In this document: in pieces, positions 2,838 through 6,624 of the stretch | How the letters are laid out: each line of letters opens with the position of its first letter | How positions within the stretch are numbered: position 1 is the first letter of the stretch | Assembly (NCBI RefSeq): GCF_003334355.1 | Contig: NZ_QOWP01000053.1 | Origin: Escherichia coli | GTDB lineage: Bacteria; Pseudomonadota; Gammaproteobacteria; Enterobacterales; Enterobacteriaceae | DNA length: 12,534 nt | Strand: one strand, 5' to 3' | The notes under the pieces: model-generated | Told to the model about the DNA's origin: nothing | Seen by the model: only the letters and a program-made list of their open reading frames with translations | The model's database searches: none | Translations under genes and position numbers: made by a program

Positions 2838-2866
2838 TTGACACATTCGGGCGGAATTCATATGAT
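2838..2866 (+). promoter_or_regulatory. Promoter of tRNA-Ala (stringent type)
   Basis: -35 TTGACA (2838..2843), a 17-nt spacer, -10 TATGAT (2861..2866), then a GC-rich discriminator (GCCGCCCG). An AT-rich UP-like stretch lies upstream (about 2780..2835). Confidence 0.7.
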
Positions 2867-2898
2867 GCCGCCCGTCAACTCGACAAGCTTTACGTGAC

Positions 2899-2974
2899 GG
2901 GGCTATAGCTCAGCTGGGAGAGCGCTTGCATGGCATGCAAGAGGTCAGCGGTTCGATCCCGCTTAGCTCCACCA
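2899..2974 (+). tRNA. alaW: tRNA-Ala (anticodon GGC), 76 nt including CCA
   Basis: GGGGCTATAGCTCAGCTGGGAGAGCGCTTGCATGGCATGCAAGAGGTCAGCGGTTCGATCCCGCTTAGCTCCACCA, with the G3:U70 acceptor-stem identity pair and a GGC anticodon. Only one copy is present in this window. Confidence 0.93.
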
Positions 2975-2982
2975 AATTTCCA

Positions 2983-3010
2983 ACCCTCGCTGCAAAGCGG
3001 GGGTTTTTTG
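2983..3010 (+). terminator. Rho-independent terminator after tRNA-Ala
   Basis: Imperfect GC-rich hairpin (CCCTCGCTGCAAAGCGGGGG) followed by TTTTTTG. Confidence 0.65.
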
Positions 3011-3182
3011 TCTCTGCTTTTTGCCGCTTTTGTAATACAGTCTACGTCCGGGTTAGTGCCGCCTGGTGAAAGCATCATTGGATGAAAAATCGGCAACAGG
3101 CTGGCCCCCTGTTTGCTTCGCGATGCGAATAAACTTATTATTTGTGTGCCTGAAAACCCCGATCAGTGAGAGTAGTGTACTC

Positions 3183-5372
3183 ATGTTTGTGGAGCATAAC
3201 CTGATAAAAAATATCAAGATATTCACACTAGCGTTTACGCTCACCGTGGTACTTATTCAGCTATCCCGTTTTATTTCGCCACTTGCCATTATCCATTCCA
3301 GTTATATCTTTCTGGCGTGGATGCCACTGTGCGTAATGCTGTCAATCTTGTTTATCTTTGGCTGGCGCGGTGTCGTTCCCGTTTTATGCGGGATGTTTTG
3401 CACCAATCTGTGGAACTTTCATCTCTCTTTTTTACAGACTGCGGTCATGCTCGGTAGCCAGACGTTTGTCGTGTTGTGTGCCTGCGCAATATTACGCTGG
3501 CAGCTGGGGACGCGTTGGCGTTATGGATTGACCAGCCGATATGTCTGGCAACGTCTGTTCTGGCTTGGTTTGGTGACGCCGATCGGCATCAAATGCAGCA
3601 TGTATCTTGTGGGGAGCTTCTTTGATTTCCCGCTAAAGATATCCACCTTTTTCGGCGATGCGGATGCCATTTTCACGGTCGTTGATTTGCTAAGCCTTTT
3701 CACCGCTGTGCTGATTTACAACATGCTTTTCTACTATCTCACTCGCATGATTGTAAGTCCCCACTTTGCGCAGATATTGTGGCGCAGGGATATCGCTCCG
3801 TCGTTGGGCAAAGAGAAACGCGCATTTACCTTAAGCTGGCTGGCAGCGTTAAGCGTGCTGCTACTTCTGTTGTGCACACCTTATGAAAACGACTTTATTG
3901 CCGGTTACCTGGTACCCGTTTTCTTCATCATCTTTACCCTCGGGGTCGGTAAGCTTCGCTATCCGTTTTTAAATCTCACCTGGGCTGTTTCAACGCTTTG
4001 CCTTCTGAATTACAACCAGAACTTTTTGCAAGGGGTGGAAACCGAATATTCGCTGGCATTTATTCTTGCGGTGCTGATTTCCTTTAGCGTTTGCCTGCTC
4101 TATATGGTGCGCATTTATCATCGCAGTGAATGGCTTAATCGCCGCTGGCATTTGCAGGCGCTGACAGATCCGTTAACGCTCCTACCCAACTTTCGTGCGT
4201 TGGAACAAGCGCCGGAGCAAGAGGCGGGCAAGAGTTTTTGCTGCCTGCGCATTGATAATCTTGAGTTTATGAGTCGTCATTACGGCTTAATGATGCGCGT
4301 TCACTGTATCCGCTCAATTTGCCGTACGCTGCTGCCGTTGATGCAGGAAAACGAAAAGTTGTATCAATTGCCGGGTAGTGAACTGCTGTTAGTGCTGAGC
4401 GGGCCGGAAACGGAAGGGCGACTCCAGCATATGGTTAACATCCTGAATAGTCGGCAAATTCACTGGAACAATACCGGGCTGGATATGGGCTATGGTGCTG
4501 CCTGGGGGCGTTTTGATGGAAATCAGGAAACCCTGCAACCCTTGTTGGGGCAGTTAAGCTGGCTGGCGGAGCAATCCTGCGCACATCATCATGTGCTGGC
4601 GCTGGATAGCAGAGAGGAGATGGTTTCCGGGCAGACCACTAAACAGGTGCTATTGCTGAATACCATTCGCACGGCGTTAGATCAGGGTGATTTGCTGCTC
4701 TACGCCCAGCCAATTCGCAACAAAGAGGGTGAAGGTTATGATGAGATCCTCGCGCGACTGAAATATGACGGCGGCATTATGACCCCGGATAAGTTTCTGC
4801 CCCTTATTGCTCAGTTTAACCTTAGCGCGCGTTTTGATTTGCAAGTGCTGGAATCCTTGTTGAAGTGGCTGGCAACACACCCTTGCGACAAAAAAGGACC
4901 GCGCTTTTCAGTCAATTTAATGCCGCTCACGCTGCTGCAAAAGAATATTGCCGGGCGGATTATTCGTCTGTTTAAGCGTTATCACATCTCCCCGCAGGCG
5001 GTCATTCTTGAGATCACCGAGGAGCAGGCGTTTTCTAACGCAGAAAGCAGCATGTACAACATCGAGCAGCTGCATAAGTTTGGTTTCCGGATTGCGATTG
5101 ATGACTTTGGCACCGGATATGCCAACTACGAACGGTTAAAGCGTTTGCAGGCTGATATCATCAAAATTGATGGCGTCTTTGTGAAAGATATTGTCACGAA
5201 CACGCTGGATGCGATGATTGTGAGATCAATTACCGATCTGGCGAAAGCGAAGTCATTGAGTGTGGTCGCGGAGTTTGTCGAGACGCAACAGCAGCAGGCG
5301 CTATTGCATAAGCTCGGGGTGCAATATCTGCAAGGGTATTTGATTGGTCGCCCGCAGCCATTAGCTGATTAA
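3183..5372 (+). CDS. pdeA: Membrane c-di-GMP phosphodiesterase: MASE1-like N-terminal domain, degenerate GGDEF-like region, EAL domain; 729 aa
   Basis: The ORF opens at 3066, but the MFVEHN start at 3183 gives the 729-aa length expected for YfeA/PdeA. The N-terminal ~300 aa are highly hydrophobic and multi-helical. The C-terminus carries the EAL-domain signatures EIL, ILEITEEQ, DDFGTGYANY and AEFVETQQQ. No GG(D/E)EF motif is visible in the middle domain. Confidence 0.88.
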   Translation: MFVEHNLIKNIKIFTLAFTLTVVLIQLSRFISPLAIIHSSYIFLAWMPLCVMLSILFIFGWRGVVPVLCGMFCTNLWNFHLSFLQTAVMLGSQTFVVLCACAILRWQLGTRWRYGLTSRYVWQRLFWLGLVTPIGIKCSMYLVGSFFDFPLKISTFFGDADAIFTVVDLLSLFTAVLIYNMLFYYLTRMIVSPHFAQILWRRDIAPSLGKEKRAFTLSWLAALSVLLLLLCTPYENDFIAGYLVPVFFIIFTLGVGKLRYPFLNLTWAVSTLCLLNYNQNFLQGVETEYSLAFILAVLISFSVCLLYMVRIYHRSEWLNRRWHLQALTDPLTLLPNFRALEQAPEQEAGKSFCCLRIDNLEFMSRHYGLMMRVHCIRSICRTLLPLMQENEKLYQLPGSELLLVLSGPETEGRLQHMVNILNSRQIHWNNTGLDMGYGAAWGRFDGNQETLQPLLGQLSWLAEQSCAHHHVLALDSREEMVSGQTTKQVLLLNTIRTALDQGDLLLYAQPIRNKEGEGYDEILARLKYDGGIMTPDKFLPLIAQFNLSARFDLQVLESLLKWLATHPCDKKGPRFSVNLMPLTLLQKNIAGRIIRLFKRYHISPQAVILEITEEQAFSNAESSMYNIEQLHKFGFRIAIDDFGTGYANYERLKRLQADIIKIDGVFVKDIVTNTLDAMIVRSITDLAKAKSLSVVAEFVETQQQQALLHKLGVQYLQGYLIGRPQPLAD

Positions 5373-5379
5373 CAGGCGT

Positions 5380-5411
5380 AAAAAAACCGGGGAATTATCC
5401 CCGGCTTTTTT
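5380..5411. terminator. Bidirectional rho-independent terminator between convergent pdeA and nupC
   Basis: AAAAAAA, then stem CCGGGG, loop AATTAT, stem CCCCGG (5387..5404), then TTTTTT. Confidence 0.85.
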
Positions 5412-5421
5412 ATGTATGGTC

Positions 5422-6624
5422 TTACAGCACCAGTGCTGCGATTGACGCAGACAGCACACTCACCAGGGTAGAGCCGTAAACCAGCTTCAGACCGAAGCGA
5501 GAAACCACGTTACCTTGCTCTTCATTCAGGCCTTTAACTGCACCTGCGATAATCCCGATTGAAGAGAAGTTAGCGAAGGAAACCAGGAACACAGAGATGA
5601 TGCCTTCAGCACGCGGAGAGAGCGTGGAAGCAATTTTCTGCAGATCCATCATCGCAACGAACTCGTTGGAAACCAGTTTGGTCGCCATGATACTGCCCAC
5701 TTGCAGTGCTTCACTGGAAGGAACACCCATCACCCATGCAATCGGATAGAAGATGTAGCCCAGGATGCCCTGGAAGGAGATGCTGTAGCCAAACCAGCCA
5801 GTAACGGTGGCAAACAGTGCGTTCAGCGCGGCGATCAGGGCGATAAAGCCGATCAGCATCGCGGCAACGATAATGGCAACTTTGAAACCTGCCAGAATGT
5901 ATTCACCCAGCATTTCGAAGAAGCTCTGACCTTCGTGCAGGTTGGACATCTGAATGTTTTCTTCACTGGCATCAACACGGTAAGGGTTGATCAGCGACAG
6001 CACGATAAAGGTGCTGAACATGTTCAGTACCAGCGCCGCAACGACATATTTCGGCTCCAGCATGGTCATGTATGCACCAACGATGGACATAGATACGGTG
6101 GACATCGCCGTTGCTGCCATGGTGTACATACGGTTACGGGAGATTTTGCCGAGGATATCTTTATAGGCAATAAAGTTTTCAGACTGACCCAGAATCAGGG
6201 AGCTGACGGCGTTAAAGGATTCCAGTTTGCCCATACCGTTGACTTTGGAGAGCAGGAAACCAATTGCGCGGATAATAACCGGCAACACGCGAATGTGCTG
6301 GAGAATACCGATCAGTGCAGAGATAAAGACGATTGGGCACAGCACTTTCAGGAAGAAGAATGCCAGGCCTTGATCATTCATGCTACCAAAGACGAAGTTA
6401 GTCCCTTCGTTGGCAAATCCGAGCAGTTTTTCGAACATTTCGGAGAAGCCTTTCACGAAGCCTAAACCAACGTCGGAGTTCAGGAAGAACCACGCCAGTA
6501 ACACTTCGATAACAAGCAGTTGAATAACATAACGGATACGAATTTTTTTGCGGTCGCTGCTTACCAGCAGTGCGAGAATCGCAACAACGGCAAGTGCCAG
6601 TACAAAATGAAGGACGCGGTCCAT
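5422..6624 (-). CDS. nupC: Nucleoside:H+ symporter (concentrative nucleoside transporter family), 400 aa
   Basis: The ORF extends to 6663, but the internal ATG at 6622..6624 ([14 protein letters not shown]...) is preceded by a GGAG RBS and gives the 400-aa NupC length. The protein is polytopic and membrane-spanning. Confidence 0.93.

Follow-up and report, generated by a model that had tools for sequence, protein, structure and literature searches.

By its sequence, the 12,534-nt stretch of DNA analysed here (the window) appears as an ordinary chromosomal segment of Escherichia coli, near to K-12 and most similar to strain PSS-12. The two differences from the K-12 layout that we followed up, a single tRNA-Ala(GGC) gene and the lack of IS186 between pdeA and nupC, are both ordinary and unremarkable, as strains are well known to differ in their IS insertions and in the number of units of their tandem tRNA arrays. 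The distribution among genomes marks an empty IS186 site as the ancestral condition, shared by the majority, and the K-12 layout as the derived one. For the single tRNA-Ala gene there are two readings, a rare variant that is already known and an error of short-read assembly.

The window and its closest relatives

The window is syntenic with the region 2.507-2.521 Mb of MG1655. In the alaW-alaX/pdeA/IS186C/nupC locus (b2393-b2397) gene order and orientation are the same in both, the tRNA sequence, its promoter and terminator and the whole of pdeA are 100% identical, and this identity holds for all bases of the window from 2899 to 5401. Within 2838-5422 the alignment contains two structural differences. 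The first one is a clean 115-bp gap, corresponding to one tRNA plus spacer, which leaves one tRNA unit in the window compared to two in MG1655; the second one is the missing 1345-bp IS186C, whose 10-bp target is present only once. To the right of the IS186 site, from nupC to fryC, 24 substitutions were counted over 7 kb. All these differences are direct sequence comparisons, in which chance plays no part.

The closest complete relative is PSS-12 (NZ_AP027697.1), with 3 SNPs over 12.3 kb. This strain originates from human faeces in Ecuador. Its IS186 site is empty as well and its fryC::IS3 junction is identical to that of the window, but it carries tRNA-Ala(GGC) twice and tRNA-Val(UAC) three times. 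In its present form, the window is absent from every complete RefSeq genome.

A further difference from MG1655 is the interruption of fryC. The 5′ part of this gene (11772..12412, plus strand; placed by MG1655 alignment and PSS-12 annotation) is broken at 12412/12413 by the end of an IS3 element on the minus strand, of which the first 122 nt, with the terminal inverted repeat TGATCCTACCC, lie in the window (12413..12534). Over these 122 nt, the window matches without exception the IS3 annotated at this junction in PSS-12. As the window ends within the element, a CTA target duplication of 3 bp and a transposase can be seen in PSS-12 only. Among 5426 complete genomes PSS-12 is the sole carrier of the junction, exact matches to the truncated FryC protein were found only in PSS-12 and in a 7.2-kb draft contig, and the metagenome contigs searched gave no match to the junction. 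The sequence-only reading had noticed an IS3-type insertion in fryC and had proposed a non-MG1655 background with an IS history of its own, and this proposal is supported by the junction shared with PSS-12 as nearest relative and by the substitutions described above.

At the left end, the window starts within a tRNA-Val(UAC) array on the minus strand (1..199), whose genes were called by ARAGORN and Rfam. A single 'G' is followed by a tRNA-Val at 2..77, a 46-nt spacer at 78..123 and a second tRNA-Val at 124..199, which is the one nearest to gltX. The spacer adjoining this gltX-proximal gene is thus the 46-nt one, whereas MG1655 and PSS-12 have a 44-nt spacer at this place; the spacer order of the window is that of the two-copy arrangement of BW25113 and J53. 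A haplotype switch (chimera) at the tRNA was considered after a first BLAST had suggested 17 mismatches to the left of tRNA-Ala. Realignment left 2 SNPs there, the other mismatches having arisen where the Val spacers of 44 and 46 nt had been wrongly paired, and the switch was rejected.

The single tRNA-Ala(GGC) gene

The only tRNA-Ala found by ARAGORN and Rfam in the window is a 76-nt gene at 2899..2974 on the plus strand, in agreement with the sequence-only reading. ARAGORN assigns the anticodon ggc at position 34, the Rfam model RF00005 matches with 63 bits (gathering score 29), and 76 of the 76 bases match both alaW and alaX of MG1655. In the acceptor stem, 5′ GGGGCUA pairs with UAGCUCC on the 3′ side, which places G3 opposite U70. 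The G3:U70 pair is an identity element for AlaRS. Upstream, a promoter-like site (TTGACA-17-TATGAT, 11 of 12 matches; 2838..2866, plus strand) precedes a GC-rich discriminator, and this flank is identical to the one upstream of MG1655 alaW. Downstream, a predicted intrinsic terminator with a 10-pair stem and a T-run (2982..3015, plus strand; a consensus match at 2982..3005) is identical to that following K-12 alaX.

In NC_000913.3, alaX and alaW are annotated as two tRNA-Ala(GGC) genes spaced by 39 bp, and IS186C is annotated near nupC. What the sequence-only reading had stated about K-12 was right, and the K-12 reference does not turn out to have a single tRNA-Ala and no IS186 itself. The 39-nt spacer AATTTTGCACCCAGCAAACTTGGTACGTAAACGCATCGT is absent from the whole window, while the flanks are identical to MG1655, so that in place of the tandem two-gene operon of K-12 type the window has one gene. 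An 81-bp direct repeat, consisting of the tRNA and AATTT, occurs twice in MG1655 with a period of 115 bp, and one copy is left in the window (2899..2979, plus strand). The single gene hence corresponds to a loss of precisely one unit of 115 bp between the two copies of this repeat.

One copy of tRNA-Ala(GGC) is found in 133 complete E. coli genomes (2.5%) and at least three copies in 51 (0.9%). The one-copy genomes span unrelated lineages, among them O157:H7 EDL933, Xuzhou21, the W-derived KO11FL, swine ETEC and others, and the state recurs in three separate records of EDL933. Unlike EDL933, the O157:H7 strain Sakai has two copies (PMC4678842 Table 3). The same table seemingly implies a single alaW in W3110; the RefSeq record of this strain has both genes.

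On balance, we lean slightly towards a collapse during assembly rather than a real contraction of the array. We infer that the window is itself a complete short-read contig, its left end lying 77 nt within the tRNA-Val repeat and its right end 122 nt within IS3, and that the collapse occurred there: with k-mers of some 77 nt, which do not span the 81 bp of the repeat, the repeat would form a loop which can be skipped, and a false single copy would result. In favour of a collapse, the nearest complete relative PSS-12 has two Ala and three Val genes, and the window as such occurs in no complete RefSeq genome. Both window ends do lie inside repeats, and the same start of 'G' plus tRNA-Val is also seen in the available stretch of a SPAdes metagenome contig (L048). 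A single tRNA-Ala was found in 14 of the 42 short-read metagenome contigs over the locus, while the complete genomes have it in 133 of 5424 cases (odds ratio 20, roughly 13-fold, p = 1.5e-12). Metagenome assemblies have low coverage and mixed strains, and repeats may therefore collapse in them more frequently than in assemblies of isolates. In these contigs, intact 3-copy Val arrays are paired with two tRNA-Ala genes (L014, L016, L049) and shortened Val arrays with one (L007, L013, L043). The fit to one assembler setting is partial: the left end agrees with k = 77, but no single simple k accounts for a right end located 122 nt into IS3. If k was 77, the reads must contain the 78-mer 'G + tRNA-Val + C' (123..200), in which case the arrangement of the Val genes would be real and the case for two joint collapses weaker.

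A real and recent contraction is entirely possible, since the one-copy structure is real in some complete genomes, 133 in number, and we consider its chance to be somewhat below even. Here, one 115-bp unit would have been deleted between the 81-bp direct repeats by unequal homologous recombination or replication slippage. The remaining gene would be monocistronic, would keep the original promoter and terminator and would provide half the dosage of the only alanine tRNA with a GGC anticodon, which would amount to a mild change in gene dosage. What is missing is exactly one unit and the flanks on either side are intact, the same allele exists in the unrelated lineages named above, and the arrays of at least three copies imply that the array both shrinks and grows. 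In addition, the adjacent Val array went from three to two copies within laboratory K-12 (MG1655 compared to BW25113 and J53), and the Val arrangement of the window matches this genuine 2-copy form. Against it stand the low frequency of the state among complete genomes, the two copies of PSS-12, the resemblance of the window to a short-read contig and the single-copy excess in such contigs. The sequence does show the copy-number difference proposed by the sequence-only reading, although this difference may not be a biological one.

An extension of real contraction, which we regard as unlikely, is that the single tRNA-Ala and the 2-copy-type Val array are both real in a gut lineage and that alaWX acts as a fast, reversible switch between one, two and three copies, with selection rather than drift setting the state in particular lineages. 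Such a switch would tune the availability of the sole tRNA that is cognate to GCC codons. In practice, short-read assemblies should not be used to count tandem tRNA genes; at this locus one third of the short-read contigs are single-copy versus 2.5% of the finished genomes.

Ancestral states of the IS186 site and the tRNA pair

The IS186 site lies between two convergent genes, pdeA (yfeA; 3183..5372, plus strand), encoding a MASE1-EAL protein of 729 aa (PSS-12 annotation at an offset of 1668; Pfam domains), and nupC (5422..6624, minus strand; PSS-12 annotation). With pdeA ending at 5372 and the stop codon of nupC at 5422, the gap between them comprises 49 bp (5373..5421), as had been noticed from the sequence alone. 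It is a predicted bidirectional terminator with a hairpin and T-runs on both strands. The hairpin, CCGGGG-AATTAT-CCCCGG at 5387..5404, constitutes the empty IS186 target as well as the plus-strand terminator match and includes a minus-strand terminator match at 5402..5390, these terminator assignments being consensus matches. In MG1655, NC_000913.3 is annotated with IS186C (insL3) between nupC and pdeA, and the duplication flanking this element is the 10-bp sequence at 5391..5400 of the window (GGAATTATCC). Neither IS186 sequence nor its terminal repeats (CATAAGCGCTAACTTAAGGGTTG) are found at the site in the window, where the gap spans the MG1655 insertion point.

Among 5426 complete E. coli genomes, the site is empty and intact in 4441 (82%), whereas IS186 is inserted at the same base in K-12 orientation in 477 genomes and in the opposite orientation in 465. 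We read the gap of the window as an undisturbed ancestral bidirectional terminator that IS186 has simply not hit, and its GGGG-N6-CCCC hairpin as a recurrent target, hit independently in K-12 and in some 17% of the other genomes. The strain difference in IS186 seen by the sequence-only reading is real, but its framing has to be corrected, as it is K-12 that carries an insertion at a hot spot.

A former IS186 copy lost by precise excision is very improbable. It could be suspected from a sibling draft assembly (GCA_003293365.1), which was built at a k of about 99, above the length of the 81-bp repeat, is 100% identical to the window across 7.1 kb, has fryC::IS3 in common with it and carries IS186 at the pdeA-nupC site. 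However, this copy is in the orientation opposite to K-12 and is hence an independent insertion, the window shares its empty site, in which the 10-bp target is present once, at 100% identity with thousands of genomes, and the site of PSS-12 is empty too. Precise excision of IS186 is, moreover, a rare event.

For the tRNA locus, the tRNA core was searched against species-representative genomes; it is so widely conserved across Proteobacteria that only the few Enterobacteriaceae among the matches listed were usable. Among these, tandem pairs with a period of 115-122 bp occur in E. albertii, Citrobacter werkmanii, Superficieibacter electus, Enterobacter sp. Bisph1 and Enterobacter sp. Ag1, at the syntenic locus in the first three. 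Since E. albertii and Citrobacter also carry it, the alaW-alaX tandem pair is, judged from these genomes, ancestral. The reverse, a single ancestral gene with a lineage-specific duplication in K-12, has the window alone in its favour and is refuted by these outgroup pairs and by the tandem junction, which marks at least two copies and is present in 5291 of the 5426 complete E. coli genomes, so that we give it practically no credence.

Comparison with known systems

The valU-valX-valY contraction of BW25113 and J53 resembles the state of tRNA-Ala in the window, as exactly one unit was lost from tandem identical tRNA genes. It took place at the same locus, 2.7 kb away, and arose within laboratory K-12; the same mechanism is proposed for tRNA-Ala if the loss is real. 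It differs in affecting the Val array, from three to two copies, and in being known from finished genomes, whereas the Ala loss in the window may be an artefact of assembly.

For IS186, SaiSree, Reddy and Gowrishankar reportedly described in 2001 a hot spot at the lon promoter, with a consensus said to consist of a run of G and a run of C on either side of a short spacer. The pdeA-nupC site differs from it in being empty in the window and in being a terminator hairpin between convergent genes instead of a promoter, so that an insertion inactivates no gene. Otherwise the two sites would be alike: GGGG-AATTAT-CCCC at 5389..5402 has the same order of G-run, short spacer and C-run and is used repeatedly, the 10-bp duplication is centred on the palindrome, and hits occurred in both orientations. 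With about 17% of complete genomes occupied, in both orientations, the pdeA-nupC terminator is a strong hot spot for IS186.

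Gene order and relatives of the window

The window carries two tRNA-Val(UAC) genes, gltX, yfeD, yfeC, one tRNA-Ala(GGC) gene, pdeA, nupC, mntH, ypeC, yfeO, glk, fryB and an interrupted fryC, and the corresponding segment is found as the reverse complement at 2.507-2.521 Mb of MG1655. No complete RefSeq genome contains the window. The closest complete relative, PSS-12 (NZ_AP027697.1, from human faeces in Ecuador), differs over 12.3 kb by three SNPs, at 211, 290 and 8114, and by no others. Two of these substitutions fall within the 258-bp intergenic region between the tRNA-Val genes and gltX.

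The junction of fryC with IS3 (12412/12413, IS3 fragment 12413..12534) was detected in PSS-12 only among 5426 complete genomes, and again in the draft assembly GCA_003293365.1 (contig NRWB01000092.1). In PSS-12, where the element lies at 14082..15339 of the extracted locus, fryC is split with a 3-bp CTA duplication. The junction, seen in one complete genome and this draft, therefore marks a narrow clone. The non-MG1655 background with its own IS history, proposed in the sequence-only reading, is supported.

A recurrent IS186 target between pdeA and nupC

The convergent genes pdeA (3183..5372) and nupC (5422..6624, minus strand) are separated by 49 bp, and this gap indeed bears the terminator described before, a hairpin CCGGGG-AATTAT-CCCCGG (5387..5404) with T-runs on both strands. 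In MG1655, IS186C (9274..10618 of the extracted locus) is flanked by the 10-bp duplication GGATAATTCC, equivalent to window 5391..5400 and forming the centre of the GGGG-N6-CCCC palindrome. Junction queries against the 5426 complete E. coli genomes revealed an intact site in 4441 and IS186 at exactly this base in 942, with nearly even orientations (477 as in K-12, 465 reversed). Such repeated insertion at one base in both orientations marks the site as a hot spot for IS186. SaiSree et al. 2001 reportedly found a G-run/C-run target consensus, with which the site agrees.

NRWB01000092.1 matches window 5390..12511 at 100% identity. At its start stands an IS186 end oriented oppositely to the K-12 copy, which shows that an IS186 insertion arose within this clone. 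About 97-99 nt of IS186 at its start (1..97) and 99 nt of IS3 at its end were observed, as expected of a k=99 de Bruijn assembly. The window represents the ancestral empty site and K-12 the derived one. The absence of IS186, initially regarded as a strain difference, is borne out, but it is the normal state (4441/5426).

Copy number of the tRNA-Ala and tRNA-Val arrays

ARAGORN and Rfam both detected one tRNA-Ala(GGC) gene, at 2899..2974, in accordance with the first reading. The K-12 layout given there proved correct: alaX and alaW, both tRNA-Ala(GGC), are annotated in MG1655 with 39 bp between them, as is IS186C (insL3) between nupC and pdeA. The window gene is identical to both K-12 genes, which match each other exactly; its upstream flank is that of alaW, its downstream flank that of alaX, and the 39-nt spacer was not found anywhere in the window. 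Given the K-12 repeat of 81 bp (tRNA plus AATTT) with a period of 115 bp, this amounts to one unit having been lost cleanly. Both the terminator (2982..3005) and the promoter-like site, TTGACA-17-TATGAT at 2838..2866, have survived.

Among the 5426 complete genomes, the tandem junction (at least two copies) occurs in 5291, the single-copy context matched in one piece in 133 (2.5%), and a spacer-tRNA-spacer query (at least three copies) in 51. Single-copy genomes span unrelated lineages, including three EDL933 records, Xuzhou21, KO11FL, BL21(RP) and swine ETEC. Within O157:H7, Sakai carries the pair according to Table 3 of PMC4678842, whereas EDL933 carries a single gene, so copy number changes within clones. 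The tandem pair is ancestral: E. albertii, Citrobacter werkmanii and Superficieibacter share it in syntenic position (period 115-118 bp). In C. werkmanii and S. electus, nupC directly follows the pair without intervening pdeA, which appears to be either an Escherichia-side addition or lost in these genera. Laboratory-strain assemblies with adjacent accessions (CP081489, BL21(DE3); CP083273; CP083274; CP081008; CP084683) contain at least three units; this set includes BL21(DE3), BL21-RIPL, Rosetta2-DE3 and XL10-Gold, and BL21(RP) has one. These oddities may be true laboratory-lineage changes or long-read assembly errors.

Three tRNA-Val genes are present in MG1655, W3110 and PSS-12, two in BW25113 and J53 derivatives. 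In the window (1..199), which is cut one base past the second tRNA-Val so that further copies are not visible, the gltX-proximal gene adjoins a 46-nt spacer, as in the two-gene arrays of BW25113 and J53, whereas MG1655 and PSS-12 have the 44-nt spacer there. Two metagenome contigs (L014, L049) carry three-gene arrays with both spacers of the 46-nt type, so that the spacers themselves are exchanged from one unit to another, whether by gene conversion or through unequal crossing-over. Variation of both arrays among finished genomes shows that units are gained and lost when identical tRNA repeats recombine or slip, a real, low-frequency polymorphism.

Assembly collapse or real contraction

For the window itself, we lean towards an assembly collapse of the tRNA-Ala pair. 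PSS-12, only 3 SNPs away, has two tRNA-Ala and three tRNA-Val genes, and both window ends lie in repeats ('G' plus a complete 77-nt tRNA-Val at the start, 122 nt of IS3 at the end), so that it looks like a whole short-read contig. In public short-read metagenome assemblies, 14 of the 42 contigs spanning the site have one copy and 28 two, compared to 133 versus 5291 complete genomes (odds ratio 20, Fisher p = 1.5e-12). Many of these contigs end inside the Val array, and one stored stretch (L048) opens with 'G' plus tRNA-Val like the window. Among the sampled contigs, every one that runs through an intact three-gene Val array carries two Ala genes, and every one whose Val array is shortened carries a single Ala gene. 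This covariation and the one-copy excess show that collapse of these repeats is a common artefact of assembly. However, the one-copy allele is known in finished genomes, the right window end matches no simple k, and k = 77 would require the junction of 46-nt spacer, tRNA-Val and gltX flank in real reads, making the Val arrangement real.

A real contraction of the Ala pair is accordingly a serious possibility, only somewhat less likely than collapse, and any further explanation is improbable. A contraction would leave one gene instead of two for the only GGC-anticodon alanine tRNA of the strain, under unchanged promoter and terminator, a mild dosage change evidently tolerated by 2.5% of finished genomes. 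The proposed copy-number difference therefore stands as seen in the sequence, with the 115-bp unit gone, but may be an artefact of assembly. The initial observation is confirmed and its interpretation partly supported; all variation at this locus falls within well-known kinds.
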